A DNA stretch of 40,000 bases from Nitrosotalea sp. (GTDB lineage Archaea > Thermoproteota > Nitrososphaeria > Nitrososphaerales > Nitrosopumilaceae): contig JBOGQX010000062.1 in the NCBI GenBank assembly GCA_050749285.1, positions 1 through 40,000 of the forward strand, written 5' to 3'. Positions 1 to 27,233 of the stretch are shown piece by piece (within the stretch, counting starts at the first letter, position 1; the number at the start of each line of letters is the position of its first letter). A program made the translations under genes and the position numbers. Under the pieces are notes generated by a model that was given only the letters and a program-made list of their open reading frames with translations, did not search any database and had not been told where the DNA came from.

Positions 1-647
1 ATCGCCGTTTTTATTCTTAATTCTTTTACTTTACCAATATCATGTAAAATGCAACCTGCAATTAGTAGATCCTTGTTAAGTTCTGGATGCATTTCTATGA
101 CTCGTTCCGCAATTTTTATCATGCTTAACACATGTTCTAAAAGACCGCCACCAAAGTTATGATGATTTGATGAGGCTGCAGCTGATTTAGAATACTCTTC
201 CATAAATTTTTCATCGAAGATATGAAGTAAAAGGCGCTTTATATCCGGATTTTCAACTTGTGAAATTATGTTTTTGAAATCTACTTTCATTTTTGTTATA
301 TCTTTTTTAGTCATAGGCATGAAATCTTCCATGCTAAATTCGTCTACTTTTTTAATTAGACCAGAATCCATATTGACTGAAATACTAATTGGACCTCTAA
401 AATCATCAGTTTTACCTTTAATGTGTACTACATCCTGAACATCAAATGAAGAATAAATTGCACAAGTTTCTGTTTTTTTATCTCCTCCAAAGAAGTTTAA
501 CATTACTTCGCCAGTCTTATCTGAAACGGTAAGAGTGAACATAGTGCCATTCTTGTAAGGCCGAGGCGATTCTTTGTTTTTCACTGCAAACAAATCGTCT
601 ACTGTTTCATCTCTTTTTTTTAAATCTGCTATAAACTGTTTTTTCAC
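1..647 (-). CDS. OB-fold + HD-domain phosphohydrolase (YhaM-like); N-terminal part only, because the gene runs off the window start
   Basis: Absent from the ORF track because it is truncated by the window edge. My reverse-strand translation starts at GTG 647, preceded by an in-frame TAA at 653-651. It reads VKKQFIADLKKRDETVDDLFAVKNKESPRPYKNGTMFTLTVSDKTGEVMLNFFGG...SSNHHNFGGGLLEHVLSMIKIAERV...AGCILHDIGKV. That is an OB-fold-like N-terminus followed by HD-domain H...HD motifs. Confidence 0.6.
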   Translation of the reverse strand, partial: MKKQFIADLKKRDETVDDLFAVKNKESPRPYKNGTMFTLTVSDKTGEVMLNFFGGDKKTETCAIYSSFDVQDVVHIKGKTDDFRGPISISVNMDSGLIKKVDEFSMEDFMPMTKKDITKMKVDFKNIISQVENPDIKRLLLHIFDEKFMEEYSKSAAASSNHHNFGGGLLEHVLSMIKIAERVIEMHPELNKDLLIAGCILHDIGKVKELRIKTA

Positions 648-817
648 GTGTTAGTTTCAATGAGATTACATATCTATCTACCGCTCAATTAGGCACAACA
701 TTTGATGAATACAAGATTTTCAAGAATTATTGAATTATTCTAATTTATTTTATATTCACTTTAGCATATTGTAGTATTCAATTGTCTCAAAGTATCACCA
801 GCTCATTTTTGTATGTC

Positions 818-1069
818 CTAATGTAACTGAGGTTGTTGTTTCTCAATCTTATGAGACATCTTGTATTCTATTTCATTAATCTTGTCTTCATATCTGACAA
901 ATACAGTATTTGGAGTATCACATTCTAGACCTAATCGGCCATCGTCATACCTAACCCAATACATATCACCGCTATAATCTTCAAGTATATCCAAAATCAC
1001 GCATACTGCTCTTTCTCCTTTATCGATATTGATTATTCTTATCTTATCTCCTACCAAAAATCTATCCAT
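818..1069 (-). CDS. Small hypothetical protein (83 aa)
   Basis: Intact ORF with an ATG start and protein-like composition (DKIRIINIDKGERAVCVILDILEDYSGDMYWVRYDDGRLGLE). I recognise no motif. Confidence 0.4.
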   Translation of the reverse strand: MDRFLVGDKIRIINIDKGERAVCVILDILEDYSGDMYWVRYDDGRLGLECDTPNTVFVRYEDKINEIEYKMSHKIEKQQPQLH

Positions 1070-1140
1070 GACTATCTCTTCTTACTTTGTGCTATAGAGA
1101 GTAGGTTATAATCAAATTACCTTTTGTTAACCTCATGCAA

Positions 1141-1607
1141 CAATATGCGCTGCGTAAATACGTGAAGATATACGCATAAATCCGCTGATGCAATGTGATT
1201 TATATCCTATGCGCGTGAGTAAAATCCAAAAATCGCGCGCATCGGTTCAAAAAACTAGCGCTTTTGAGCACGGTACACATCAAGCGCACATTTTGCACTA
1301 GCGCGATTCAAAACGCGCCGCTGGTATCGCACAAAATGCGCCAAAAATCATACACGCCCAATACGCTTTGATGCACGCGTCTATCATCTGCGCATATTCA
1401 AAAGCGCACACGCAATAGACTGGATCATTCATTGAATCAATGCATCAGGACACGGATTGAAATCAACACGCACGTGATTCCAGTATAATCCGATTTGAAA
1501 ATACAAAAGATACGCGCAAAGATCCACGTGCTTAAGATCTAAAATTCGAAAGATGCGCACGCAACCAAAGAATCTTGAATGATTCCACGTAGGATTTTTG
1601 AATGAAT
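1141..1607. repeat. Non-coding array of degenerate GCGC/CGCG-containing iterons, followed by two TGATTCCA...TTTGAA repeats
   Basis: I counted 13 GCGC tetramers between 1147 and 1558. Recurrent words include TTCAAAA-N0-6-GCGC (about 1246, 1306, 1396) and AAAAT(C)GCGC (about 1228, 1334). There is a direct repeat of TGATTCCA(N)GTA...GATTT(T)TGAA at 1475-1500 and 1580-1602. No ORF of 60 aa or more covers 1100-1428. Confidence 0.6.
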
Positions 1608-1685
1608 GTTTCCAAGAATGGTTCCGAAAGATACCATAGTGGATCCTAGTCTTATGAATCAACTTATGAAAATCCTGTTTGGATC

Positions 1686-2234
1686 TTACCGTATTACTGG
1701 CTGTCCTTTTTGTCCTATCTCTACTGCCATCATGTCTAGGAACTCTTCGGCAACTCTTTTGTGAGCAAGTGATGTAATTAGATCCTCTTTTCGCAAATAT
1801 TCAATCACAATTTTTACAATCTCATATGCTAGTGGTGCTTTCCATAGGTCAAACGCTCTATTCTCATTGATTTTTTTATAATTCGATATTGGAAAATTAC
1901 CAAAAAGAGCAGATAACACGTCAACCAGCGGTGAAGGTACAAAACATTTTCCAGAAACTAGACGGTGATCAAATATCTCTTTTACCTGTTCAGGATGCGC
2001 TACAAAACAGAATAGCTCCAAATCTTTGAGACCACTTCTAACAGTTGTTCTGACATCATACCAAAATTCAGCATTGTCCTCTTGATAGTTCTTTTTTGCT
2101 TGTGCTTTTACTCCTAACAGTTTTCGGCGTTTGTCTTCTGTAAATACTCCTCCATCGGCATCAAGATGATCCTTGAACTGATCATGAATATTCTTAAGGT
2201 CGTTTTCGACTATTTCTCGTCTATATTTGGCCAT
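1686..2234 (-). CDS. Hypothetical protein (182 aa), element-borne
   Basis: Intact ATG ORF with protein-like, predicted helical composition and no recognisable motif. It is divergent from the polymerase operon across a 56-bp spacer. Confidence 0.5.
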   Translation of the reverse strand: MAKYRREIVENDLKNIHDQFKDHLDADGGVFTEDKRRKLLGVKAQAKKNYQEDNAEFWYDVRTTVRSGLKDLELFCFVAHPEQVKEIFDHRLVSGKCFVPSPLVDVLSALFGNFPISNYKKINENRAFDLWKAPLAYEIVKIVIEYLRKEDLITSLAHKRVAEEFLDMMAVEIGQKGQPVIR

Positions 2235-2290
2235 TCTATATTATAGTATGGCCATTAATTACCTATTAAATATTCCGATCAATAGTAGGT

Positions 2291-2668
2291 GTGAAAAAAC
2301 TCCAGAAACTGCGAAACCAACTTGGTTCAGTTAAAAAGGAAATAGATTCACTAAAGACATTCAGACCGACAAAACAGACTGGACAATTACTCAGACATTT
2401 ATTTGCAGAAAATAGTCGCATTGTAAATGCAATAAAGAAATTACAATTATCCTCAGAATCAAGACAAAAAGAACGCCAACAAAGACGACAAAGAGCAAAC
2501 CTTAATCGCAGAACAAAAATGACGCGTGGTTGGAGATTTTTTAAAGCAATAAAGGAAAATTATCTTCCTGACAAATCTACAAAAGAAATCCGCTCACAAT
2601 TTTCCAAGTTTAAAAAAGGACTGGAGACAGACATCGCAGAAGTCATATGGAGGAACCCTAGTCCATGA
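2291..2668 (+). CDS. Highly basic 125-aa protein translationally coupled to pPolB (possible DNA-binding or terminal-protein candidate)
   Basis: GTG start. The stop overlaps the polymerase ATG by 4 nt (ATGA at 2665-2668). It has a Lys/Arg-rich core, SRQKERQQRRQRANLNRRTKMTRGWRF. Confidence 0.5.
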   Translation: MKKLQKLRNQLGSVKKEIDSLKTFRPTKQTGQLLRHLFAENSRIVNAIKKLQLSSESRQKERQQRRQRANLNRRTKMTRGWRFFKAIKENYLPDKSTKEIRSQFSKFKKGLETDIAEVIWRNPSP

Positions 2669-4542
2669 CTTTACAAATACACCTTCCAAGATCAAAAGCT
2701 AAAGACCTCACATACATCAAACAAGGAAGACCAAATAGAAATGTAAACCAGTCAGTGCGTAGAAAAGTAAAGGGAATTGATTCTGAAACATCTGATGGAG
2801 ACATTTTTCTAATTTGTGACTCTGATGGAAATTTCTTGGATTATCCAAACATTACATTTGATGGTATATCTGAATTTCTTTTCAAACATGAGGATTCTTG
2901 GTTATTTTGCTATAATCTACAATATGATGCTGAATGTATAATGAAATTACTGCCCTCTGAAGTATTTGATCCATATAGAAAGAAGAAACAATTACGTTTT
3001 GAATACAAAAACTATACAATTACATACATTCCAAAAAAGCAATTCAAAATACAAAAAGGAAATCATACAGTTTCGCTTTACGATATCGCACAATACTATG
3101 GCAATGTGCCGCTAGCCGATGCATATTCAGAGCACATCAAAAAACCCCTAGATCAAGACTATCTGAAAACCAAGAAAATACGAAAGAATTTCAGTCTCAG
3201 GCACTATTTTAGGCACAAAAAGCCTATTCGAAGATACTGTACTACAGATTGTATTCTAACAAAGGACTTGGCAGAGCACTGGCTAGACACATTTTTTGGA
3301 GCATATGGTTTCTATCCTGCAAACTGGGTTAGTTCTGGATATTTGGCAGAAAAAGTATTGATTCACAACGAGATACCCATTCCATTCTTTAATGATACCT
3401 TGTATGATATCCAGAAACTAGCATGGGAATCATTTTACGGTGGACGGTTTGAGCTCATACAGCGCGGGTTTATTGGCCAATGCTATCTGTATGATATCAA
3501 TTCAGCATATCCGTATGCTTTGACATTTCTTCCAGATATTACAGACGGAAAATGGATTGGAACAAGAAAAATAAATCCAGGATCTGCATTAGGATTTTTC
3601 CACATTCGTGCCCAAATAGATTATTCAGTAAAGATTGCGCCATTTCCATTTAGAACAAAAAATAATAGAATAATCTATCCAACAGGTGAGTTTGAAACTT
3701 TTGTTACACTCGAAGAATTAAAGGCAATAACAGGAGATCCAAAAATAAAATACAAGATAATTGATTCGTATCAGTTTATTCCAAATGTAAATTGTCAGTA
3801 TCCATGCAAAAAATTCATCATAGAGCAATATGATAAAAGAATGAAACTAAAAAAACAGGGCAACAAACAGGAAGTGGCAATCAAGATCATACTAAATTCC
3901 ATGTACGGTAAAACTGCCCAACGTGTGAATAACCAAATGGGAAATTTATTCAATCCCGTAATTGCATCATATATCACCGGATTTGCAAGGGCACAACTGT
4001 ACAAATTTGTGAAAGATCATCAGTTGGAAAAATACGTGGTCGCCTTTGCAACGGATTCCATTGCATGCAGGAAAAAGATTCCATGCATAGATAGTAAAAA
4101 ACTAGGTGAGATGAAACTAGACAAGGAGGGGCATGACGTGTATTTTCTCTCAAACGGTTTTTACCTGTTTAATGGAATGTGGAAAAATCGTGGAATTGGC
4201 TATGATACTGAGAAAAAGGCCGAAATCGAGCACTTGGATACCAAAATAGACAAGGATGGTAACTTGTACATTACAGTCAAAACCACGAAAACCACACACA
4301 TCAAAAGCGGAATCATATACAATAAACTCGATAAAATAGGCAAGATCGAGGAATATGAGAAGAAAATTGGCTTAAATTCTGACAGAAAGCGATACTGGCA
4401 CTCTGAATTAAAATCGTTAAAAGAAAAAACATTTTGTGATTCTTCGCCGATTCCAATTGATGTGGTTGACGATATTATTTCAAAGAAGGAGATTGAATGG
4501 ACTATGGATGATGACGGTTATGAACCTGAAAGCGAACTTTAA
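2665..4542 (+). CDS. Family B DNA polymerase, protein-primed type (pPolB)
   Basis: Exo I is GIDSETSDG (DxE), Exo II is YNLQYDAE and Exo III is YCTTD. Pol motif A is LYDINSAYPYAL, motif B is KIILNSMYGKTAQ and motif C is AFATDSI. At 625 aa it has the compact size typical of pPolBs. Confidence 0.9.
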   Translation: MTLQIHLPRSKAKDLTYIKQGRPNRNVNQSVRRKVKGIDSETSDGDIFLICDSDGNFLDYPNITFDGISEFLFKHEDSWLFCYNLQYDAECIMKLLPSEVFDPYRKKKQLRFEYKNYTITYIPKKQFKIQKGNHTVSLYDIAQYYGNVPLADAYSEHIKKPLDQDYLKTKKIRKNFSLRHYFRHKKPIRRYCTTDCILTKDLAEHWLDTFFGAYGFYPANWVSSGYLAEKVLIHNEIPIPFFNDTLYDIQKLAWESFYGGRFELIQRGFIGQCYLYDINSAYPYALTFLPDITDGKWIGTRKINPGSALGFFHIRAQIDYSVKIAPFPFRTKNNRIIYPTGEFETFVTLEELKAITGDPKIKYKIIDSYQFIPNVNCQYPCKKFIIEQYDKRMKLKKQGNKQEVAIKIILNSMYGKTAQRVNNQMGNLFNPVIASYITGFARAQLYKFVKDHQLEKYVVAFATDSIACRKKIPCIDSKKLGEMKLDKEGHDVYFLSNGFYLFNGMWKNRGIGYDTEKKAEIEHLDTKIDKDGNLYITVKTTKTTHIKSGIIYNKLDKIGKIEEYEKKIGLNSDRKRYWHSELKSLKEKTFCDSSPIPIDVVDDIISKKEIEWTMDDDGYEPESEL

Positions 4543-4639
4543 AGCGATGTTTAAACCTTGCAAAGCGTAATTTAAAGATGTCAAATTACCTAAAACCTAG
4601 CCTTAACTAGAAATCAACCTATCAAAACAGATTCAAAAT

Positions 4640-6055
4640 CTATCTTCGTTCTCTCCATTTTCGCTTTTTTGGTTTTAGTTCACGAGCCCTAGATTTGTCG
4701 GTAGCAAGGTATGGTTTTTGGGAATCACCAAACGCTATTTTCCCGACATATTCACATCCTAAAACACAATCTTTCAGTATTGGTATTATATCTCCAGGAT
4801 AGTAATTGTAAGGTTGTTGACCCAGATCACCCATTTTTCCCATATTTGTAACAAGTTCTACAAATTGAATGGCTTCAAGACCTGCTAATGCTACTACAAA
4901 TGGCATTATACTTTGTCGTGTTGGTCCACTTTCCGATTCAAGTTTTTCAATATATTTTGGATCATCAAATAGCCCATCCCTATCTCTTTGAACCTCACCA
5001 GCATCAAACGCCTTTAGACAACTCATGCATGCGCGTTCCGGACCAACTGTCTGGGCTCTGTACATACCATGAATTAGGGTTTCATTCAATACTTTGAAAG
5101 ATATTCCACCATCTACTACAGGTATTAAACATGAATATGCCAGATTATTTAGTACCTGTCTTGGCCAAGGCCTATCGACACAACTGAATATTACATCACA
5201 ATCTAATGCTTCTTTGTAGCCGTCAGGTTCTACTACGCTACTTTCAGATTTTGTACACAAAAATTTGTTTGCAGTTGCTGCTTTGGTGAGATTTTTCTGA
5301 ACTACATCAATTTTTTTCCGACCCACATCATCTTCTGAAAGACAATTCATTCTGTCAAGATTGTGGATCTTAACCTTATCGTAATCCATGATAAAAATTT
5401 CACCTACCCCAAGTCTGGCTAAGGTTTCACCAACCATTGAGCCAACACTGCCTACTCCAATTATTCCTACTTTCATCCGTGCAATGTCAGCTTGTTTTTC
5501 TTTGCCCCAAACTGTTAACGTTCTGATTTGTTTTTTACTTGTTCTGGGAGGGAATTTGATCTTTGGATTGAAGTGTATTGTTAAATTTTTGCCTACAATT
5601 CTAATAGCGGAACACCATTTTATCTTAAACGGGATAGGGTAGATTCTGCCACTCCATGTTCCGTTTCCTGCTAATGTCATCCCAACAAAAGGATAACCTG
5701 TGATTCCAAAAACCTCTCTTGAAAGGACATCTTGTTCATAATAAAGATCGGGTGACGATACATTTTGCCAGTTAACACCACCTGGATGAGTATGGATCAT
5801 TGCTAATCCACCCCCTTTCTCCCTTGCTAATTCCTTAACTCTGTCAACATATTCTGGAAGAGCTGATACTGTTCCATCACGAATTCTTTCCTTATCCTCT
5901 GGAAAGATTATGTCTCTGATGAGAACAGAATAACGTGATTTACCCTCCGCAGGATGCCAAATAGCAAAACAAATTTCCTCATCAGAAGTATCTTTCAATA
6001 GGAAATCGTTCAGTAACCTATTTGTTGATTCAGTCATTGCAATGTTGTATTCCAT
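4640..6055 (-). CDS. JAB/MPN (JAMM) metallopeptidase fused to a ThiF/MoeB/E1-like adenylating domain
   Basis: The N-terminus has E26/E27 (EEICFAIW) and H88-T-H90...S100-S-P-D103 (MIHTHPGGVNWQNVSSPD), which is a JAMM motif. The C-terminal part has the Rossmann motif G200-V-G-S-V-G205 followed by IFIMDYDKVKIHNLDRM and CVDRPWPRQVLNNLAYSCLIPVVDGG (ThiF/E1 signature). It also has Cys pairs CMSC and CVLGC, resembling a MoeB/ThiF-like Zn site. Confidence 0.85.
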   Translation of the reverse strand: MEYNIAMTESTNRLLNDFLLKDTSDEEICFAIWHPAEGKSRYSVLIRDIIFPEDKERIRDGTVSALPEYVDRVKELAREKGGGLAMIHTHPGGVNWQNVSSPDLYYEQDVLSREVFGITGYPFVGMTLAGNGTWSGRIYPIPFKIKWCSAIRIVGKNLTIHFNPKIKFPPRTSKKQIRTLTVWGKEKQADIARMKVGIIGVGSVGSMVGETLARLGVGEIFIMDYDKVKIHNLDRMNCLSEDDVGRKKIDVVQKNLTKAATANKFLCTKSESSVVEPDGYKEALDCDVIFSCVDRPWPRQVLNNLAYSCLIPVVDGGISFKVLNETLIHGMYRAQTVGPERACMSCLKAFDAGEVQRDRDGLFDDPKYIEKLESESGPTRQSIMPFVVALAGLEAIQFVELVTNMGKMGDLGQQPYNYYPGDIIPILKDCVLGCEYVGKIAFGDSQKPYLATDKSRARELKPKKRKWRERR

Positions 6056-6056
6056 T

Positions 6057-6428
6057 TCAATTAATCTCCAACCATCGGTTTACATGATCAATATAGTATT
6101 GTGAATTACGCCTGCCTGGATTCCAGTTATTGATCTGCCTACTCCAAAATCTCCAATCTCCACCTAGCGTACTTGGATTGTCAGATTTAGGAATGTTTTC
6201 AGTAAAACCATGATCTGATTTCACATGTATTCCATATGGTGCAGTAGTAGGATAATCCTGCGGTATAGGAAATCCTATATTCACGATTTTACCTTCGTAT
6301 TTTCCACTGGGTATAACATAACCAGTTATTTTGAAAATAATCTTCCCATCGGATGGAATTTTTTCATAGTTCAATAATTTACCTTTTAAGAAGTCTTCAA
6401 AATTCTGGACAGATGCATCGTCTGCCAT
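6057..6428 (-). CDS. E2/UBC-fold-like protein without any cysteine (UEV/RWD-like or non-canonical prokaryotic E2)
   Basis: It has an E2-like core, IGFPIPQDYPTTAPYGIHV (P-x-D-Y-P...P...H), and a C-terminal W-rich helix region, WRFWSRQINNW...YYIDHVNRWL. It lies 1 nt upstream of the JAB-E1 start and 8 nt downstream of the Ubl gene. The 123-aa sequence contains no Cys. Confidence 0.55.
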   Translation of the reverse strand: MADDASVQNFEDFLKGKLLNYEKIPSDGKIIFKITGYVIPSGKYEGKIVNIGFPIPQDYPTTAPYGIHVKSDHGFTENIPKSDNPSTLGGDWRFWSRQINNWNPGRRNSQYYIDHVNRWLEIN

Positions 6429-6436
6429 ATTCCATC

Positions 6437-6673
6437 TTATGCGGGGTTTATGGGTCCAGTGAATCTAGTAGTGAAATGATCTCCGTCCTTTACTTCAATT
6501 ATCTGATTAGGATCTGTGTATGTATGTTCTACTGGACCTCTCTCGCCCTTTCTTTTCTGTAACTCGTATTCTCCCGGCTTCCCACCTCCCAGTTCTATCA
6601 AAGTACCAACCTTCACATCGTCGGATTCAAGTTCAAATTTTTGACCGTTCACAAAAACAACTATTTTATGCAT
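6437..6673 (-). CDS. Small beta-grasp / ubiquitin-like protein (multiubiquitin-type single domain)
   Basis: The 78-aa sequence has the pattern KIVVFVNGQKFELESDDVKVGTLIELGG...YELQKR...IIEVKDGDHFTT. This is typical of prokaryotic Ubl domains found beside E1/E2/JAB genes. Its operon position lies between the unknown gene and the E2-like gene. Confidence 0.55.
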   Translation of the reverse strand: MHKIVVFVNGQKFELESDDVKVGTLIELGGGKPGEYELQKRKGERGPVEHTYTDPNQIIEVKDGDHFTTRFTGPINPA

Positions 6674-6690
6674 TCTTTCACCCCCATATC

Positions 6691-7284
6691 CTACCTAGCT
6701 TTTGACAAAAGCTTCAGTGCCAATTTACTTAACCAATAATGATGTGGCACATTTCTGAATCCCATCCAGTAATAATCATAACTTTCATCATACAAGTTTT
6801 TAGCACCAAGAGCAGCGACAACTTTACTATATTTATGAAGCTGTTGTTGAACGTCACCGCTTTCAAGAGTTTTTCTAATTAATCCTAAATTGTTAGTTGG
6901 TAGAGCCAAAGCATTAGCAACAACTGTCCTTGCAGTAGAACTCACTATCAAATATGCGTATAATCCTCGTCGTTCTCTTTGAAGTGCTGCATATATTTCA
7001 CGGTCAGTATCTAGCCTGCCGCCTCTTTCATATTTGAAATACACTTTCTGCTCTTTTTCTTTTTTATCTAACAGACGATATTTTTTATATGCAGGATAAA
7101 ATGCGTTATCGTTTGCACCGTTCTTGATAAATTCCCATTTGGTTTGTTGATGTGCTTCGTCTACTGCATCAAGTTTCTCACCTGCCAATAACACGTCAGC
7201 GGTTTGTGATAGAGTTCGCATTCTAGGAAAATCCTTCTTTAGTTCCTGCATCAATCTGGCTTTTGGTGAATTTATTACAGACAT
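6691..7284 (-). CDS. Unknown 197-aa protein, first gene of the Ubl operon (contains an RNxxxH motif)
   Basis: Intact ORF with a GAGGT Shine-Dalgarno-like sequence 8 nt upstream of the ATG. It lies 17 nt upstream of the Ubl gene. It is predicted helical. R177-N-V-P-H-H182 fits the HEPN-type Rx4H pattern, but this is motif-level evidence only. Confidence 0.55.
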   Translation of the reverse strand: MSVINSPKARLMQELKKDFPRMRTLSQTADVLLAGEKLDAVDEAHQQTKWEFIKNGANDNAFYPAYKKYRLLDKKEKEQKVYFKYERGGRLDTDREIYAALQRERRGLYAYLIVSSTARTVVANALALPTNNLGLIRKTLESGDVQQQLHKYSKVVAALGAKNLYDESYDYYWMGFRNVPHHYWLSKLALKLLSKAR

Positions 7285-7538
7285 GCTTCAACCTCACTAT
7301 CAGTCATGAAAATCCTAAACCTTGCCAGTTTTGGTTCGTTTTTATCCCCTAATGGATACATTAGATGTCTTTTTTATGCTCTAGTATTTAACCTATTTCC
7401 TATGAGACACCGGATGAATAGGTAGAACTCCTTCATGGATGGGTGTGCTGCACGAGACAAAACAGCATCAAATTGACCAGAAGAAATACTGTATTACAGA
7501 CAGCTTTTTATTACATAATTTATCCATGTATGGATATA

Positions 7539-7688
7539 ATGGCATATTCAAGTGGATACACATCCGTAAAAGTGCCTAAAACATTGGCTGAAAAAATCAA
7601 CGTAGTTGCTGAAAAAGAAGGCTATCGCTCGGTCTCGGAATTTTTGTTAGATGCTGCGAGAAGACGTCTAGAAGACTTTCAAAAGTAA
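7539..7688 (+). CDS. Ribbon-helix-helix (CopG/Arc-like) DNA-binding protein, 49 aa
   Basis: MAYSSGYTSVKVPKTLAEKINVVAEKEGYRSVSEFLLDAARRRLEDF shows the classic RHH pattern of beta strand, helix and helix. The track ORF starts at GTG 7443, but its first 32 aa look non-protein-like. A TATA-like TTTTTATTA at 7505-7513 lies about 26 nt before ATG 7539. An oligo-T tract follows the stop. Confidence 0.7.
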   Translation: MAYSSGYTSVKVPKTLAEKINVVAEKEGYRSVSEFLLDAARRRLEDFQK

Positions 7689-8064
7689 CTTCTTTTCTTT
7701 TTTGTTTTAAGGGCGTAGTATACTAGTGGAAACCATCGTTTGATCTGGTCGCAGTGACTAGTCATAATTTTCTTTTTCGTATATCAACTTTCGGAGAAAG
7801 AAAATCTCAAGCCACATTCCATCTAGTGGTTGTGATCGCTTTACCTTTTGACAGAATTCTTATTCACCAAGAGTGAATGGTGAATATTGCGTGTAGAATC
7901 AGCTAATCATTTTAGATCAATACATAAATAGTCGATAGTTGCTTTCTTGTAAAATATGGCGGAAATTGATTTTCACAGCAGCTCAAAAAAAATAGTAATC
8001 CCAGAAGCAGCCTTCAAGTTACTAGCAGAAAACAAGAAAAAAGACTAGTCTTAACATATTAATT

Positions 8065-9576
8065 TTATTGTGAACGAGCCACTGCCTGGGCAATAATATT
8101 TCTTACTGTTCGGACCTCTTCTCTGGACGATTCTCTTTTCCTTCTATTTGGTATTAGATAAAAAACAAATAGGTTTGGAAAGTCTTCCCATTCTTCATTT
8201 ATTTTTACGGCATATGGCGAAATTGTAGTAAGTTCTCTTAATTTATCATCTTTGGAAGTACCAAATATCAAAATAGTATTTTTTTCAGATAGTGGTTCGT
8301 ATGGTTTCCTCGGAAAATCCTCAGAAAACACGTAAATGTCTCTAAGAGGATTTCCTTTATCTTCAAACATTTCCTTTAACAAAGGTGGCGACTTTTCTAA
8401 AAAAAATGAATTAATTTTAGATAGTACAACTTTGTTATCTTCAAAGAGATCTGATTCTTCCTTAATTTTTTCGATCATCGAACTGTAATCCATAATATGT
8501 TTAAAAACCGATATTGGTAAATATCGCCTGTCTACAATCCCGAAAAATTTATGATAAGAACTTTTTCTACTAACGAATTTTTTAATTATGGAGAGAACAT
8601 TTTCATCGGTTGATTTTCCCTCAGCATATGAAGTCCAATGAAATAATTCAGCAATTTCCTCCCTCTCGTGTATTATCCTCTCAATGGCACGTCTTATTAG
8701 GGCATTAGTGGCTGTGACTGCATGATGCTGATAAAACCATTTGTACATTTTAAATCGAGCATCTAGCATATCTTCTACGTTACCTAAAGCCCTTGCATGA
8801 ATAGCAATTTCGAATTTTCCAGGTCTTTTTCTTTTTACAATGGACATATTATTAATTATTCTGGTAATGTCGGTACGCCCAAATTGCACACCTGACATTA
8901 GGCTGTCACGTAACAGATAGTCCATTCTATCAGCATCTAATTGACTTGAAATAATTTTTCTTAAAATTGAATATCCCTGAGGATATTTCTTAGCATAAGT
9001 TATTGGTGCTTTGACCAATAGTGAAGAGATTGATTTGAGAAGGTTCTCACCTCCTTGGGAATGCTGTTTAATTGTTTTTGCTATTTCTCCACTATTGACC
9101 AACTTGTACGAGAAAAACTCATGGATTGGAATATCATCTTCATCTTCCATAAACAGTTTTTTTGCTTCACTAATCTCCTTTTTGTGATAAAGTTTTGTCA
9201 CTTCAAGCATCGCTCTTTCTGCAGAATGAGAAAATGGGCCGTGACCAATATCGTGAAAGAGGCATGCCAGTCTAACACTTTTTATAATAAATTCCTTTTT
9301 CGATTTTTTGAATAGTTCATCATAGTAGTCATCCGATGTGTTTTGTATTAGTTGCGTTATAATTTGATGGCCCACGTGTAATGCACCTATAACGTGTGAA
9401 AATCGTGTTGTCACGGATCCTGGAAAGGTAAGATACGCAGTAGCTGTCTGTTTAACATAATGTAACCTATTGAGTGTGGGTAACTGTAGCAAATCATATT
9501 CCAGAGTTGTCAAAGGAATTGGTCCGTGAACAGGGTCTCCTATGATTTTTGGGAGAGACAGCTTTGGAACATCCAC
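8065..9576 (-). CDS. HD-domain dNTP triphosphohydrolase (SAMHD1 / COG1078 / dGTPase-like)
   Basis: DPVHGPIPL...LNRLHYVKQT...TRFSHVIGALHVG, CLFHDIGHGPFSHSAE and QLDADRMDYLLRDS are the hallmark motifs of SAMHD1-type HD dNTPases. It has a GTG start. Confidence 0.85.
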   Translation of the reverse strand: MDVPKLSLPKIIGDPVHGPIPLTTLEYDLLQLPTLNRLHYVKQTATAYLTFPGSVTTRFSHVIGALHVGHQIITQLIQNTSDDYYDELFKKSKKEFIIKSVRLACLFHDIGHGPFSHSAERAMLEVTKLYHKKEISEAKKLFMEDEDDIPIHEFFSYKLVNSGEIAKTIKQHSQGGENLLKSISSLLVKAPITYAKKYPQGYSILRKIISSQLDADRMDYLLRDSLMSGVQFGRTDITRIINNMSIVKRKRPGKFEIAIHARALGNVEDMLDARFKMYKWFYQHHAVTATNALIRRAIERIIHEREEIAELFHWTSYAEGKSTDENVLSIIKKFVSRKSSYHKFFGIVDRRYLPISVFKHIMDYSSMIEKIKEESDLFEDNKVVLSKINSFFLEKSPPLLKEMFEDKGNPLRDIYVFSEDFPRKPYEPLSEKNTILIFGTSKDDKLRELTTISPYAVKINEEWEDFPNLFVFYLIPNRRKRESSREEVRTVRNIIAQAVARSQ

Positions 9577-9847
9577 AGGTAGACAAGGTGAATCATGCTG
9601 ATAAATTTAGTTATTAATATCATGACAGGATGGAAAAAATCAGCTTCTATTTTGGTTAGCTCTTCTGTTTTCCAGTTTCTATCTTCCATGTATTTGTCAC
9701 AAAAAGCAGACAGCTTCTCAAATCTTTCCTTTTACACTTCAAGTTCAATGGATTTGCCACCTTCAACATTGAATCTGAAGTGCTAATTCATCATTGGAAA
9801 AAACTGGACTAAATATCTTATAGGGGAAAATTACTGCATTTTGTATG

Positions 9848-9976
9848 TCAAGTAATGTATTGTTTTGAAACCTTAACCGCAATTGGTTTGAATTGAAAAG
9901 TTTCTATAAGAATTACTAAAAGTACAATGAAAGAAATAGCAATAACACATATGGCAATAATTAGGATTGTTTCCAT
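9848..9976 (-). CDS. Possible 42-aa single-pass membrane peptide directly downstream of cas1
   Basis: My translation is METILIIAICVIAISFIVLLVILIETFQFKPIAVKVSKQYIT. It starts 14 nt after the Cas1 stop on the same strand. It is below the size cut-off of the ORF track, and short AT-rich ORFs often arise by chance. Confidence 0.2.
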   Translation of the reverse strand: METILIIAICVIAISFIVLLVILIETFQFKPIAVKVSKQYIT

Positions 9977-9990
9977 GATGTACTTTCAAA

Positions 9991-11124
9991 TCACTCTGTT
10001 CTATTAAGTTGCCCGTTGAATCCAAATTTTCTTAATTCTATACATTTCATTTTCATAATCGTAATCTCCTCCATCATCTGATAACCATCCTTCCTTCTGA
10101 TCCCACTTCTTGCTTTGTATGGTCTTTTTCTGTCAAAAATAGTAGAAAGCAAATCAATGTATTTTTTCTTCAAATCATCAGATAATACCACAATCCCATA
10201 TCTAGAAAATGTGTAATCCTTCTTGCGTATCTGATTTTGAATCTCAAGGACGCTTCTATCTATCAAATGTCTAAAGGGTTCTATCATATCATACACCAAT
10301 GCTAATTGAGACTCATGGTTTCTGTGATAGAAGCCGACATAGCAATCAAGACCTAGTGAATTGAGTTGCTTTGCTACCTCTGCATACAAGATACCAAATC
10401 CATAATTCAGAAGACCATTGATTACATCTGATGCATCTTTAGGTCTAAATGTTCTAGCATTATTCCTAGAATGAAATCCCAGCTCGGAATCAAATAATAA
10501 TGAAAAATTAGGATAATAGATTTTTGCAATGTCACTTTCAACCTTCATTATTTCACGTAGTTCATGAGCAGAATCAAGTCCCTTCAGTCGTTGTTTCATT
10601 GTTGATATTATCTTTCTAATCTTCTCTTTTACCTCTGGCTTTACCTTAAGAGAATAATTCATTCCAGAAGACTGATTATTACAGATCTGCCACTTTCTAT
10701 TGTACGAGTTATAGACTCGTTTTGGTTCTGCCACAAACTCCTCAAACAGTCTGATTTGTGATTCAATCCTTTGTGATATTAGCCACTTTCTAAGAAATTC
10801 TAACCTCTTTAGATCTCTGAAAGTATCATACTGTTTTTGTCTAACTAATGGTTCATGACCTCCAATTTTATGAAAGTAGCTGAATAACTTGCCACGCTTG
10901 TCAAGCATTACAACATTGATTTTAGAATCTGCAAGTCGTTCTAGCGCCTCAGTGGATACGTATCCCCTGCCTTGGATTACAACCTTGTCAAATGGACAAG
11001 CACTAGCTGGTAGCTCTAGAATTTCTCTTTTGTTTGAGAAAGGATCAATTCCTTGTGAAAATACCAATCGTGTGTTTTGTACTTTGATCGAGAGGCCATA
11101 GCCATGAAGGAATAAGGATTTCAT
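9991..11124 (-). CDS. cas1: Cas1-family integrase (casposase)
   Basis: Cas1 signatures are VESDIAKIYYPNF, VINGLLNYGFGILYAEV and GFYHRNHESQLALVYDMIEPFRHLIDRSV (catalytic E/H/D region). There is a 4-nt overlap with the upstream HNH gene. No Cas2 or CRISPR array is present in the window. Confidence 0.9.
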   Translation of the reverse strand: MKSLFLHGYGLSIKVQNTRLVFSQGIDPFSNKREILELPASACPFDKVVIQGRGYVSTEALERLADSKINVVMLDKRGKLFSYFHKIGGHEPLVRQKQYDTFRDLKRLEFLRKWLISQRIESQIRLFEEFVAEPKRVYNSYNRKWQICNNQSSGMNYSLKVKPEVKEKIRKIISTMKQRLKGLDSAHELREIMKVESDIAKIYYPNFSLLFDSELGFHSRNNARTFRPKDASDVINGLLNYGFGILYAEVAKQLNSLGLDCYVGFYHRNHESQLALVYDMIEPFRHLIDRSVLEIQNQIRKKDYTFSRYGIVVLSDDLKKKYIDLLSTIFDRKRPYKARSGIRRKDGYQMMEEITIMKMKCIELRKFGFNGQLNRTE

Positions 11125-11480
11125 TTCTTCGAAGAATGCCCTTTCTTGAAATTACACTGATAACATAGCGGCTGAATGTTGTCTATGCTATCGCTACCGC
11201 CTTCTAACAGAGGAATAATGTGATCTTCAGTTATCTTGTATTTGGCAGAACCTTTTGAGAATGGTATATCTTCCCATTTCCTATTACACCTAGGACATCT
11301 ATCATATTGTTTGAGTTTATCTTGAAATTCCTTATCGGTGTGGGTGCCTACCGCGTTTCTTTTTCTTGTATTGTAGGTTTTTGCCCTCAATTGCCTACAG
11401 GTCTTACAGTATTTGTGAACTTTACCACTAGTTGATGTCCAAGTGCTCCAGTTATCATGGCCTTTTCCACACTGTGTCAT
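11121..11480 (-). CDS. HNH endonuclease (119 aa)
   Basis: ITEDHIIPLLEGGSDSIDNIQPLCYQCNFKKG is an HNH motif. CxxC pairs (CKTC, CPRC, CYQC) indicate zinc binding. Confidence 0.85.
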   Translation of the reverse strand: MTQCGKGHDNWSTWTSTSGKVHKYCKTCRQLRAKTYNTRKRNAVGTHTDKEFQDKLKQYDRCPRCNRKWEDIPFSKGSAKYKITEDHIIPLLEGGSDSIDNIQPLCYQCNFKKGHSSKK

Positions 11481-11696
11481 TTACCGTAATTCGCTCTTCT
11501 TTTTGTCGGTGCCTTCAACAATGTTGTGGCATTTCCTACAATAGATCACAATATTCTGCCATCGATCATCTTTTGCTATGTGGTTTCTGTGATGAATTGT
11601 AAGATCAACCTCTGGAATTCCCTTCTTGCATCTCTCGCATTTTGCGTTAAAATATCTCAGAATTGCAGTTTGATTGAAGCGTTTTCGGCTACTCAT
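11481..11696 (-). CDS. HNH endonuclease (71 aa)
   Basis: CERC...LTIHHRNHIAKDDRWQNIVIYCRKCHNIVEG gives an HNH core with two Cys pairs. It abuts the second HNH gene with no gap. Confidence 0.75.
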   Translation of the reverse strand: MSSRKRFNQTAILRYFNAKCERCKKGIPEVDLTIHHRNHIAKDDRWQNIVIYCRKCHNIVEGTDKKKSELR

Positions 11697-11914
11697 GAAG
11701 GAATTGATCTATTCTAAACAAAATACTTTACGACCAGCGTCATATTTCTATGCGTAATTTGGGGGGATACTATTTTTATTGAACCGCAGTAAAAATGGAA
11801 TACCCCTCGTTGAAGGGAAACATGCTTTTGTCATAAATTTTATCTAATTCAGAAATTATCATTTGATTTCACAGTCGACAGATCCTTTAACTAGGAACTG
11901 TACATAGCGGAATC

Positions 11915-12256
11915 ATGGGCCAGAAAATATCAGGGATAGAGAAGTTTCTTTCTCCATCGTTAAACAAAATAGAGGAAGAATTAAGATCAATTCATGCTGA
12001 GATTAATATAGTAAAGGCAAGAATGGATGAGACTGACAATAGGTTGACAAAGTTAGAAGAGGATCATAGACGTCTTACAACTAGGATGGATAAGACCGAC
12101 AATGGACTGACAACCGAGCCAAAAATCCTAATTGATAACATAAATGAAATGGAAAAGCAGAATAGAGATGAGATTGATGTTCTAAAGCGCGTCATGGATG
12201 TCGCACAAAGAAGGTTAGTCATTCTTGAAGCCAAAATGAAAGAGCTTGGCAAATGA
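11915..12256 (+). CDS. Coiled-coil protein with internal repeat (113 aa)
   Basis: It has heptad-like charged sequence with the repeated unit RMDETDNRLTKLEE / RMDKTDNGLTTE. An antisense ORF at 12064..12252 is disregarded. Confidence 0.5.
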   Translation: MGQKISGIEKFLSPSLNKIEEELRSIHAEINIVKARMDETDNRLTKLEEDHRRLTTRMDKTDNGLTTEPKILIDNINEMEKQNRDEIDVLKRVMDVAQRRLVILEAKMKELGK

Positions 12257-12283
12257 ATTAATTCCCACTTTGTGCATTGTCTA

Positions 12284-13006
12284 CTACTTGCCCGTAGTAA
12301 TTTCTATGCTAGCACATGAAAAAGTTGAAACATCACGTATTTCACTTGTATCTTGACCTGAGAATCGATATGTATCTTTGAGGTCATTTACATAAGGATA
12401 GTATGATTGAAATTTACACTTGGTGTAATGTACGGTTTCAATTATTGAACTATCACCTGCAATAATATCTATTGCAACATCAAACAGTGGGTAGTCGGAA
12501 TTTGTCGCCGCTATATTCATGTACTGATTAATGAAATTATAGTAACTTTGTTTATCTTTAGTCGGTATTGATTCCAAATAAAATTGTGGAGGTCCACCAG
12601 AGTCTGTTGCTGGTGCGCTGGGACCACCTTCTGTTACTCCAAACATACCGATTTTTGAAAAAGTGTTAATGGTCATAGTGTTGGTAGCTGTGGTAAAATG
12701 AACTACAAACGATTGCGCCATTGTGTCAGGACTCAAATTTGAGTTGGTTGCAGTTACTGTTGTAGTTGGTATTGGATTTGGTATTTGAGTTGGGATTTGA
12801 ATTATCCCTTGAGTAATGAGATATTGTAAACCTTTAACGTATTCTGTGTCTGTGATATTTCCTTCCGACCACCACTTAGCATTATTTTTTATCCACTGAG
12901 GAATAACAATTTGTTGAGCAGAAGCCTCGAAGGATACAGTAGCAACAGCTAGAATTCCAATAATCAAAGATAGGTAAACAATTTTGATTAATTTCAATAA
13001 ATTCAT
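12284..13006 (-). CDS. Secreted or cell-surface protein (signal peptide)
   Basis: The N-terminus MNLLKLIKIVYLSLIIGILAVATVSFEASAQQ is a signal peptide. It is followed by an IPQWIKNNAKWWSEGNITDTEYVKGLQYLITQGII module that, as I recall, recurs in thaumarchaeal extracellular proteins. Confidence 0.6.
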   Translation of the reverse strand: MNLLKLIKIVYLSLIIGILAVATVSFEASAQQIVIPQWIKNNAKWWSEGNITDTEYVKGLQYLITQGIIQIPTQIPNPIPTTTVTATNSNLSPDTMAQSFVVHFTTATNTMTINTFSKIGMFGVTEGGPSAPATDSGGPPQFYLESIPTKDKQSYYNFINQYMNIAATNSDYPLFDVAIDIIAGDSSIIETVHYTKCKFQSYYPYVNDLKDTYRFSGQDTSEIRDVSTFSCASIEITTGK

Positions 13007-13087
13007 TTTTGATAAAAACTACATAAATGTATTCTAGCGAAGATGATAACTATCAGCTCTAAAATTTACGACTTTTTCAATCTTTTT

Positions 13088-14095
13088 TTATTGATTTTTG
13101 CTGACAAATGTCAACACATCATCCAGTGTGGGCGGAATTCCTTGTGTATTACCAACGTAAAGCGATGCTGCACCGTTTGCAAAGAGTAATCGCTCGTATG
13201 GATCTAAATTTGCCAAATATCCAACTATATTTGCAGCATCCCACACATCACCTGCCCCAGTAACAAAATTAGGTTCAACGGAAAATGACTTGGCAAAATC
13301 AACCTCTTTTCCGTTTGACCAATATGCCCCAGAAGAAATGTGAAGATCAATAGAAACTAAGGTCTTTTTTGACAAGTCAAGAATTAATTTTCTAGTTTCT
13401 TCCACATCAGATATGCCTTCCAAACCATATTGCTTTAGGAGTATATTGCACTCGTTTTCGTTAATACACAAAGAATCCAACAAGATACCAAGTTCACTAA
13501 TGGCATTTTTGAACTCGCTTGGTCTTGTTTGTACATCTGCAGGATCTAAAAAATGCATGGCTCTTGGGGATTTTTCGAATACAAATTTACAAAGTTCTGT
13601 TCCTTTTTCATTACTTGCCCAATTTGCAACAATTACAGCATCTGAATTTCTAATTGCTTTCTGTTCTTTTGGTCCAAGTTTCTCAGGTCCAAAATTTTCG
13701 TTATCACCTAGATCTGAGAGCATTATGTTTACAATTTTGCCGTCGTTACGAAACTCAAGTGATGTTGTCCTACCCGGTTTGCCATCAATTACAAAAAGAG
13801 AAGCTTTTTGAAATTCTGAGAATGTGTCCCTTAGGAGAGTTGCACTTGCTTTATCAGCCACAGTAATTAGAGTGATTGTACATCCAAGCCTAGCAAGAGC
13901 ATATGCAACATTTGTTGCGTTGCCTCCCTTGAGGTCCTTTTGAGATATACCACGAATACTTCCTCCAAATTTACTTTTTTCTAATATTTGTTGATAGACT
14001 TTTTCAATATCTGAAATCTTGACTATCCTGTCCAGAAAAAAATCGTTTAGAACAACAACTGAGCCTAAGTTTAGATTTTGCAGTTTTTCTAACAT
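13088..14095 (-). CDS. PfkB-family (ribokinase-like) sugar/nucleoside kinase
   Basis: GGNATNVAYALARLG is the N-terminal PfkB motif. TGAGDVWDAANIVGYL is the C-terminal PfkB signature. Confidence 0.8.
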   Translation of the reverse strand: MLEKLQNLNLGSVVVLNDFFLDRIVKISDIEKVYQQILEKSKFGGSIRGISQKDLKGGNATNVAYALARLGCTITLITVADKASATLLRDTFSEFQKASLFVIDGKPGRTTSLEFRNDGKIVNIMLSDLGDNENFGPEKLGPKEQKAIRNSDAVIVANWASNEKGTELCKFVFEKSPRAMHFLDPADVQTRPSEFKNAISELGILLDSLCINENECNILLKQYGLEGISDVEETRKLILDLSKKTLVSIDLHISSGAYWSNGKEVDFAKSFSVEPNFVTGAGDVWDAANIVGYLANLDPYERLLFANGAASLYVGNTQGIPPTLDDVLTFVSKNQ

Positions 14096-26981: not shown

Positions 26982-27000
26982 TGTTTAGTCACTTTACCTT

Positions 27001-27026
27001 GTATTAGTATATAGTATTAGTATATA
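27001..27026. repeat. Perfect tandem duplication of a 13-nt TATA-rich unit (GTATTAGTATATA x2)
   Basis: Read directly from the sequence. It lies 20-45 nt upstream of the minus-strand start at 26981 and probably represents a duplicated TATA box. Confidence 0.6.
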
Positions 27027-27233
27027 TTTAAGCATGGATCAGAAATTTCTATAATTAATTCTTCGATAATTTATAAAAATTATATCTATATGGCAAGATC
27101 GGATCAACAGTTTTCAGAAAAAACCTGAAAAAGAGATATAAATATGTATGGTTTTCTTTGATGCAAGTTTTTTGATTTTTTAGGAATTTTTTCAATCTAA
27201 TATTTAAGGATTGACCGTAGTTTTTTGATTTTT

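Follow-up and report, generated by a model that had tools for sequence, protein, structure and literature searches.

The 40,000-nucleotide stretch analysed here (hereafter the window; from Nitrosotalea sp., an ammonia-oxidising archaeon, assembly GCA_050749285.1, contig JBOGQX010000062.1, positions 1 to 40,000 of the forward strand) carries most of a family-1 casposon, and the gene at 8065–9576 on its minus strand encodes a 503-amino-acid (aa) HD-domain protein with the SAMHD1/EF1143 fold. We favour, with modest confidence, the reading that this protein is a catalytically competent deoxynucleoside triphosphate (dNTP) triphosphohydrolase which travels as a passenger gene of the casposon and would act as a stand-alone defence by depleting nucleotides. 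The mapped ends of the element enclose the gene, its protein keeps the catalytic residues of SAMHD1, and its distribution is that of an accessory gene present in addition to a core copy of the same family.

Family and fold of the HD protein

The open reading frame (ORF) is intact, starts with GTG, and its translation contains the motifs (R58-F-S-H61, H108-D-I-G-H-G-P-F-S-H117 and D214-A-D-R-M-D-Y-L-L-R-D-S225) from which a first-pass annotation of this DNA had proposed a SAMHD1-type, COG1078 identity. This identity holds by sequence, fold and catalytic residues. Indeed, the protein matches the Pfam families HD (PF01966, 28.8 bits, cut-off 22) and HD_assoc_2 (PF19276, 31 bits, cut-off 23.1), and its best sequence match in the PDB is EF1143 of Enterococcus faecalis (2o6i, E 1.3e-27), further matches being 2q14, a phosphohydrolase from Bacteroides, and some 25 SAMHD1 sequences of human, mouse and nematode origin at E ~1e-19 (human SAMHD1 at about 2e-19). 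We found about 120 relatives of roughly 500 aa, with identities from 69% down to ~30%; the few named ones are from Thaumarchaeota, Nitrososphaeraceae or Thermoplasmatota, and the source names for this archaeal clade are just ‘HD domain-containing protein’ or ‘HD superfamily phosphohydrolase’. Sixty relatives were aligned and the same alignment was used for structure prediction, which gave a predicted local distance difference test (pLDDT) score of 94.1 and a predicted template modelling (pTM) score of 0.93. When the predicted structure was compared with the PDB by Foldseek, the top match was EF1143 with bound dGTP/dATP (3irh, E 1.2e-18, template modelling (TM) scores 0.65/0.72), followed by dozens of SAMHD1 chains (TM 0.6–0.7), and since these alignments span ~500 columns, the C-terminal lobe is matched besides the HD core.

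Membership of the dGTPase-type (Dgt) enzymes, with whose defence-associated members the annotation had suggested a comparison, did not stand. The NCBIfam models of the Dgt-type anti-phage dGTPases (NF041026/NF003701) give 28.7–42.8 bits against cut-offs of 383–405 and reach residues 52–135 only, and the PADLOC dGTPase model covers only residues 56–127 (E 2.7e-9), that is, the HD motif region alone; judged by these profiles, the predicted enzyme is outside the Dgt-type family. A viral origin of the gene was also rejected, as the relatives in IMG/VR are all distant, none exceeding 32% identity, and many come from giant-virus bins.

Catalytic and regulatory residues

Residues were mapped from the ungapped parts of the phmmer alignment of the 503-aa protein to SAMHD1; the mapping was computed, and the roles named below (pocket, first and second regulatory sites) are those that we take the residues to have in SAMHD1 structures. 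The metal ligands of SAMHD1 (H167, H206, D207 and D311) correspond to H61, H108, D109 and D216, which are invariant across the 60 relatives, and the other catalytic or pocket residues (R164, H210, H215, Y315, D319, R366, Y374 and Q375) correspond to R58, H112, H117, Y220, D224, R274, Y282 and Q283. With Q149, found as Q43, all SAMHD1 substrate-pocket equivalents are kept (Q149, R164, Y315, D319, R366, Y374, Q375). The catalytic and pocket residues are mostly invariant or nearly so in the alignment of relatives, and every residue invariant in it is present in the 503-aa protein, which we read as a competent dNTPase, as predicted from these positions.

SAMHD1 has two nucleotide-binding regulatory sites at its oligomer interface. 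In the first regulatory site, the guanine-reading triad of SAMHD1 (D137, Q142, R145) is replaced by Q31, N36 and H39, of which H39 is invariant in the family alignment. In the second one, D330, R333 and H376 are found as D236, R239 and H284, all three invariant in the 60 relatives. Regulation by nucleotides was probably kept, with a different activator specificity. Because the guanine triad is absent while the equivalents of the dNTP-binding regulatory site are kept, the protein offers a clean system for studying the regulation of this fold, and the ~500-aa clade provides a compact, single-gene and easily expressed candidate.

The casposon and its target site

The window starts at the first base of contig C62, and the reverse complement of contig C1 ends with the same 8 nucleotides (nt) that begin C62; in addition, a 319-aa OB-fold/HD frame is continuous across the join, from which we infer that the two contigs are adjacent. 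In DNA comparisons with 30 genus members, synteny begins only at ~13095, at the end of a pfkB-family kinase gene (13088–14095, minus strand; Pfam PfkB), the first syntenic host gene and the right edge of the variable region. The element-free genomes G165 and G077 have ~1.7 kb before pfkB and then 8.6 kb matching the start of C1 in reverse, and in such genomes guaA is linked to pfkB, the HD gene and all else in between being absent. Given the C1/C62 overlap and the continuous ORF, the variable region extends from ~1.85 kb inside C1 to window position 13090.

The right terminal repeat at 11695–11777 pairs with C1 at about 1894–1812 (G000:C1; window scale about −1885 to −1803), the left repeat lying directly 3′ of the guaA stop codon; of all inverted repeats in the variable region, this pair is the best (51 nt, 82%; 86 nt when gapped). 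Outside both repeat arms stands a 13-bp target-site duplication, ATTGAACCGCAGT, matching at 13/13 positions: its right copy is at 11778–11790 on the plus strand, and the identical 13-mer at the guaA 3′ end (C1:1907–1895) forms the last codons of that gene (…I-E-P-Q-stop). By its domains (GATase + GMP_synt_C), the gene flanking the element encodes GMP synthase, which rules out ef-2, the commonest target in the literature. The element is thus a family-1 casposon spanning −1885 to 11777 on the window scale, or 13,663 bp provided that the contigs join exactly; its terminal inverted repeats and target duplication enclose the HD gene, which confirms the location inside a mobile element that had been suspected from the gene order. 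The family-1 casposase of N. koreensis produces the 13-bp duplication ATTGATAAAGAGT, of which positions A1, T3, A11 and T13 were studied as key determinants (PMC8464041); ATTGAACCGCAGT has the same length and the same A1, T3, A11 and T13, and therefore follows the pattern defined in vitro. With its ends mapped, the element makes guaA a further known target of family-1 casposons. Note that a 3.8-kb mini-casposon (HD gene, Cas1 and HNH; ends 7969–8002 and 11763–11796) was considered and dropped in favour of the better pair with C1 and the perfect outer duplication, its inner copy being kept as a relic.

The element carries the genes that define its family. The casposase is a Cas1-solo protein of 377 aa (9991–11124, minus strand; Pfam Cas_Cas1, E 1.3e-47, the sole domain matched) and is the single Cas1 in the 1.77-Mb genome, with homologues 77–85% identical in casposons of related genomes. 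It is preceded by two HNH endonuclease genes (11121–11696, minus strand; Pfam HNH, E 2.3e-12 and 8.6e-7), which head an HNH-HNH-cas1 operon (11696–9991). On the plus strand, a 625-aa family B DNA polymerase of the protein-primed type (PolB, 2665–4542) matches the viral protein family phrog_11768 ‘DNA polymerase’ over residues 27–580 (E 2.6e-58), and full-length homologues, 48–78% identical, adjoin casposases in most of 20 other casposase loci; its protein priming is presumed from what the literature states for the family (PMC4046053).

Core copy versus accessory copy

The search for a second, core copy of COG1078 in the host, which the first-pass annotation had proposed as a check, was positive. 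Contig C14 carries a 414-aa gene, 37–39% identical to the 503-aa protein in matched segments, between thymidylate kinase (tmk) and an amino-acid-kinase-family gene. Core-strength matches occur in 147 of the 151 genomes of the taxonomic family, including all 115 of high quality (the core copies extracted for the tree being mostly about 410–440 aa), and the 503-aa type occurs in 5 of 301 genomes of the class, namely our own, one of the same genus at 58%, two at 50–53% and one with a split copy at 37%. In the maximum-likelihood tree, the core and 503-aa types are separated with 100% support in the Shimodaira–Hasegawa-like approximate likelihood-ratio test (SH-aLRT); the core copy of our genome is placed among same-genus core copies, and the 503-aa protein pairs with a metagenomic sequence at 69–70% identity. 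The DNA comparison with 30 genus genomes turned up no 503-aa orthologue, and neither did the guaA site of those compared in detail. The C14 copy is the vertically inherited one. As a side observation, an HD homologue in a high-GC genome of the same taxonomic family (L046, G061:C3, 9144–11940; 37–43% identical) is split into two frames, which may reflect a frameshift, a pseudogene or an N-terminal fusion.

Neighbourhoods of relatives and census of casposons

The loci of ten relatives of the 503-aa type were read, and their gene neighbourhoods are what points to an antiviral role. The sister gene, which is the closest relative (69% identical; L037), is preceded by a same-strand TIR-domain gene at a distance of 60 bp, and Schlafen/AlbA_2 and NERD genes come next; the 55% relative abuts HamA and a DEAD-box helicase (the Hachiman pair). 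Next to the 37% relative are genes for a DNA methylase, a HATPase_c_3 protein, AAA_15/OLD-TOPRIM proteins and an IS66 transposase; the 38% relative has an AAA_15/AAA_21 ATPase and an IS66 fragment, and the 46% relative lies among plasmid-like genes (ParA, Zot-like and IS240-type DDE transposase). The GC content of the HD gene is 5–9 points below its surroundings in four of the relatives' loci. Neither Cas1 nor PolB was found near the HD gene in any of the ten loci. No neighbour was consistent across them either, which ruled out a conserved small partner gene such as is known from some bacterial COG1078 operons. Note that the TIR-domain protein of L037 has 209 aa, with a TIR_2 match of 29.4 bits and then a weak DUF1883 match; TIR and dNTPase make a possible two-gene module there (9311–11533).

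No HD homologue of either type was found near 20 other casposases (~10 kb either side) or in four further casposon loci of the genus. The comparison with casposon relatives that the annotation had suggested thus showed no HD gene in any of the 24 other casposon loci. Altogether, the HD gene is a horizontally mobile accessory gene, often but not always near defence genes, that was picked up once by our casposon.

Cargo and spacers of the element

PolB and cas1 are convergent, and the 5.4 kb between their stop codons hold a ubiquitin-like operon, a ribbon-helix-helix (RHH) gene and the HD gene. The operon (4640–7284, minus strand) consists of four genes encoding proteins of 197 aa and 78 aa, an E2-like protein and a ThiF-type E1 (Pfam ThiF and Prok-E2_E; PADLOC E1-E2 models), and the RHH gene of CopG type (7443–7688, plus strand; Pfam RHH_1, E 1.1e-5) is convergent with the HD gene. 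In the compact casposon of genome G131, the corresponding gap is 1.4 kb and holds one gene (L138, G131:C24, 10528–11688), which encodes a DUF6996/DUF6997/DUF7226 protein of 386 aa in the place of the ubiquitin-like operon, RHH and HD genes of our element. The convergent gap is the variable cargo slot of the element.

Further cargo lies in the left arm. The OB-fold and HD-domain protein (3–647, minus strand; Pfam tRNA_anti-codon OB fold and HD) is cut by the contig start and has 319 aa across the join. It adjoins the gene of a 467-aa metallo-beta-lactamase or beta-CASP-type hydrolase (Lactamase_B_2 + RMMBL; G000:C1:341-1744, minus strand, about −1735 to −332 on the window scale), and both are cargo not shared with the compact sister casposon of G131 by tblastn. 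The left arm also contains a gene-free stretch of 359 bp (1070–1428) and, upstream of the polymerase, two small conserved casposon genes (182 aa, 1686–2234, minus strand; 125 aa, 2291–2668, plus strand) with homologues beside PolB in other casposon loci. Such small genes upstream of pPolB are common to family-1 casposons (PMC6563490, PMC4046053).

The HD gene does stand between the RHH gene and the HNH-HNH-Cas1 operon, as annotated. The spacers given as 375 and 415 bp measure 376 bp (7689–8064) and 414 bp (9577–9990), and their non-coding status and unusual length were confirmed; indeed, both exceed any gap between long ORFs in the 27-kb host part of the window, where the largest is ~250 bp (26982–27233). 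The 414-bp spacer, which separates the stop codon of Cas1 from the HD gene, contains AT-rich, TATA-like words 25–45 nt upstream of the GTG, read by eye, and may hold a putative promoter of the HD gene; it is not conserved in a related casposon (G173). No Rfam match at E ≤ 0.1 was found in positions 1–14000, spacers included, and no tRNA in the window. The search for repeats bracketing the HD gene, as marks of an insertion of its own, gave only chance-level short matches and GACTAGTC palindromes. Since the GC content of the gene (35.1%) is like that of the casposon (36.0%) and of the host part (36.6%), there is no compositional sign of a recent arrival. We also observed a 56-nt sequence shortly before the RHH gene (7382–7439) that has one counterpart each, 84–89% identical, in many genus genomes and a second copy in our genome (C23:126–181); it is neither a tRNA (ARAGORN) nor a member of an Rfam family.

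Relic ends and the guaA hot spot

A decayed internal casposon terminus, consisting of a repeat tip and its adjoining 13 nt in inverted orientation, lies at 7969–8040 on the plus strand, 25 bp beyond the HD stop codon. The inverted repeat that it makes with 11763–11796 (34 nt, 79%) is longer than any other within the first 14.5 kb of the window; a gapped alignment extends it to ~8040, and its score of 35 compares with 23.1 ± 2.2 for dinucleotide shuffles, being reached by 1 of 200. As this decayed end lies within it, the 376-bp spacer is largely explained. These data suggest that the present element may have arisen by fusion or inversion between two casposons, one of which would have contributed the block HD-cas1-HNH-HNH.

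The guaA–pfkB interval has received casposons in other genomes. In G131 it contains a compact ~7.8-kb casposon in the same orientation, with its own perfect 13/13 duplication, ATTGAACCACAAT, at both ends; because ATTGAACCACAAT matches the guaA sequence of G131 itself, this casposon would seem to have been inserted independently or to be a converted copy. In G160 the interval contains a decayed casposon in the opposite orientation. Moreover, a relic left-type repeat of an older casposon, which aligns with the left repeat, directly follows the right duplication in our genome (11791–11840, plus strand), and the same arrangement is found in G131; in the ‘empty’ genome G165 such a relic follows the guaA stop. 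The history of the site fits serial insertions at one place, and tandem casposons have been described before (PMC6563490).

Two side observations touch on such rearrangements. In genome G173 of the same genus (L032, G173:C74), two casposon repeats stand back to back at ~5527–5672 between PolB-bearing and Cas1-bearing elements, which looks like tandem casposons. To the right of our casposon, a 113-aa gene (11915–12256) is 72–82% conserved in most genus genomes searched, at other chromosomal places, and in G010 the 3′ end of its homologue abuts a Cas1 fragment and casposon. This suggests that the 113-aa gene is a second casposon target, or that a casposon-mediated rearrangement moved it here.

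In a wider scheme that we regard as distinctly speculative, casposons of ammonia-oxidising archaea would be vehicles for small defence islands and would gain cargo by fusion of tandem casposons at hot spots. The relic at 7969–8040 would be the scar of a fusion between a polymerase-bearing element and a casposase-bearing element that carried the dNTPase; the enzyme would both starve viruses and cap the dNTPs available to the casposon's own protein-primed polymerase, leaving the element self-limiting.

Proposed function of the enzyme and alternative explanations

In the proposed mechanism, the 503-aa protein would assemble into an oligomer, binding of a nucleotide at the regulatory site would switch the enzyme on, and dNTPs would be cleaved to deoxynucleosides and triphosphate. 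A replicating virus would thereby be starved of DNA precursors and the host, and with it the casposon, would be protected, the housekeeping role in the dNTP pool being left to the core paralogue beside thymidylate kinase. The first-pass annotation had called a dNTPase on a self-replicating element paradoxical. A conflict is conceivable, but we consider the paradox weak, because one transposition copies only ~14 kb compared with the many genome copies of a lytic virus, because SAMHD1-type enzymes are nucleotide-gated and not constitutively active, and because prophages and satellites, which replicate themselves too, commonly carry defence genes; this is reasoning and not measurement.

Several points weigh against an antiviral passenger enzyme as proposed here. 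The defence association is partial, as four of the ten relatives' loci have housekeeping neighbours only and one more has neighbours without assigned function. Such an HD gene is carried by 1 of the 25 casposons examined, so no tie between the enzyme and casposon biology is apparent. The anti-phage dGTPase models of PADLOC and NCBIfam match the HD motif only, far below cut-off, and with the guanine triad replaced (Q31/N36/H39), the regulation of SAMHD1 is not transferable. Finally, the C1/C62 join rests on the 8-nt overlap, the continuity of the ORF and the matching ends.

Among the alternatives, the enzyme could serve the element itself, by trimming or rebalancing the dNTP pool so as to throttle the protein-primed replication of the casposon (copy-number control) or by excluding competing mobile elements from its cell, with host protection as a by-product at most. 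We judge this unlikely, although the HD gene comes immediately after the casposase operon and on its strand, the guaA site is a contested one, where several genus genomes have a casposon, a decayed one or relic ends, and the invariance of the residues matching the dNTP-binding regulatory site of SAMHD1 would suit the sensing of nucleotide pools. Indeed, with no HD gene in the 24 other casposon loci, the enzyme is not needed for casposon replication; its relatives live outside casposons, with no Cas1 or PolB nearby, and a gap of 414 bp separates the gene from cas1.

It is improbable, in our view, that the SAMHD1 fold does another job here, such as acting on ribonucleotides or on modified or signalling nucleotides, or binding or cutting single-stranded nucleic acid, instead of depleting dNTPs. 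The replaced guanine triad would allow it, the 500-aa archaeal clade has no characterised member, and two of the best PDB matches, 2q14 (‘phosphohydrolase’) and 2hek (‘hypothetical protein’), were deposited without a stated activity; however, the equivalents of the SAMHD1 substrate pocket are all kept, and the best structural matches are dNTP-bound EF1143 and SAMHD1. We give just as little credence to a neutral hitch-hiker, i.e., a redundant second dNTP-pool enzyme trapped when two casposons fused and without a selected role in this genome. A relic casposon end 25 bp from the HD gene does indicate a rearrangement able to trap bystander DNA, and the single occurrence among casposons and the core paralogue already present are as expected, but the frame is intact over 503 codons with all residues invariant in 60 relatives kept, and the clade persists as full-length genes across diverse Thaumarchaeota. 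Lastly, an ordinary, vertically inherited COG1078 gene with the island boundary elsewhere, the case that the annotation had named as its refutation, can practically be dismissed, since it is the separate core copy that relatives have in common with our genome, no 503-aa orthologue turned up in the DNA comparison with 30 genus genomes, element-free guaA–pfkB intervals lack the HD gene, and the element ends enclose it.

If the enzyme is an antiviral dNTPase, as we favour, nucleotide-depletion immunity would be extended to Thaumarchaeota, for which we know of no experimentally tested defence gene, and casposons, relatives of the CRISPR adaptation module, would spread host-protective cargo as bacterial prophages and islands do. 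It should be noted that dNTP depletion and defence genes on mobile DNA are established principles, and that our case is one occurrence among 25 casposon loci.

Comparison with known systems

The closest characterised enzyme is EF1143 of E. faecalis (PDB 2o6i, 3irh, 4lrl), a bacterial COG1078 dNTP triphosphohydrolase of similar size, which is matched in its HD domain as well as in its C-terminal lobe and has the HD metal site and the DADRMDYLLRD motif in common with the 503-aa protein. The two are only 22–23% identical, and in the PDB-search alignment EF1143 reads N, Q and R where our protein has Q31, N36 and H39. We take EF1143 to be a chromosomal enzyme without a defence link, whereas the 503-aa gene is cargo of an archaeal mobile element. 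The core of human SAMHD1 (e.g., PDB 4bzb and 7ujn) matches the full-length fold, with conserved catalytic and second-site equivalents, and restriction of viruses by destruction of dNTPs is the SAMHD1 principle that we propose, by analogy, for the 503-aa protein. In contrast to SAMHD1, the latter has no SAM domain and a replaced D137/Q142/R145 triad, the identity being 18–20%.

In bacteria, Dgt-type dGTPases were shown to be anti-phage effectors (10.1101/2021.04.26.441389), and more recently, structure mining seeded with the SAMHD1 domain uncovered stand-alone anti-phage dGTPases, including an octameric one of Pseudomonas aeruginosa (PMC13519002). Like the gene described here, these are single-gene, HD-domain effectors that deplete nucleotides (a prediction in our case), often among defence genes or on mobile DNA; they are experimentally established, whereas the archaeal protein is known from its sequence and predicted fold. 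None of the papers listed by our literature search joins a casposon with SAMHD1 or a dNTPase. The passages retrieved by term searches from two casposon surveys mention no dNTPase, HD hydrolase or ubiquitin-like genes, nor do they name a beta-CASP-type hydrolase or an OB/HD protein (PMC6563490, PMC4046053).

The element itself is best compared with the family-1 casposons of Thaumarchaeota (NitAR1-C1, NitNF5-C1/C2 and NitDev-C1; PMC4046053, PMC6563490, PMC8464041). Both have a Cas1-solo, a protein-primed PolB with small genes upstream, inverted repeats and a 13-bp duplication that has A1, T3, A11 and T13; both are inserted where a protein-coding gene ends and show signs of serial insertion at one site. 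Both also carry element-specific cargo, which in the known ones includes nucleases such as OLD, NERD, HEPN and Cas4 (PMC6563490). Our casposon differs from those described there in its target, which is guaA and not ef-2 or the phosphoribosylamine-glycine ligase gene, and in the relic end that it bears in its interior.

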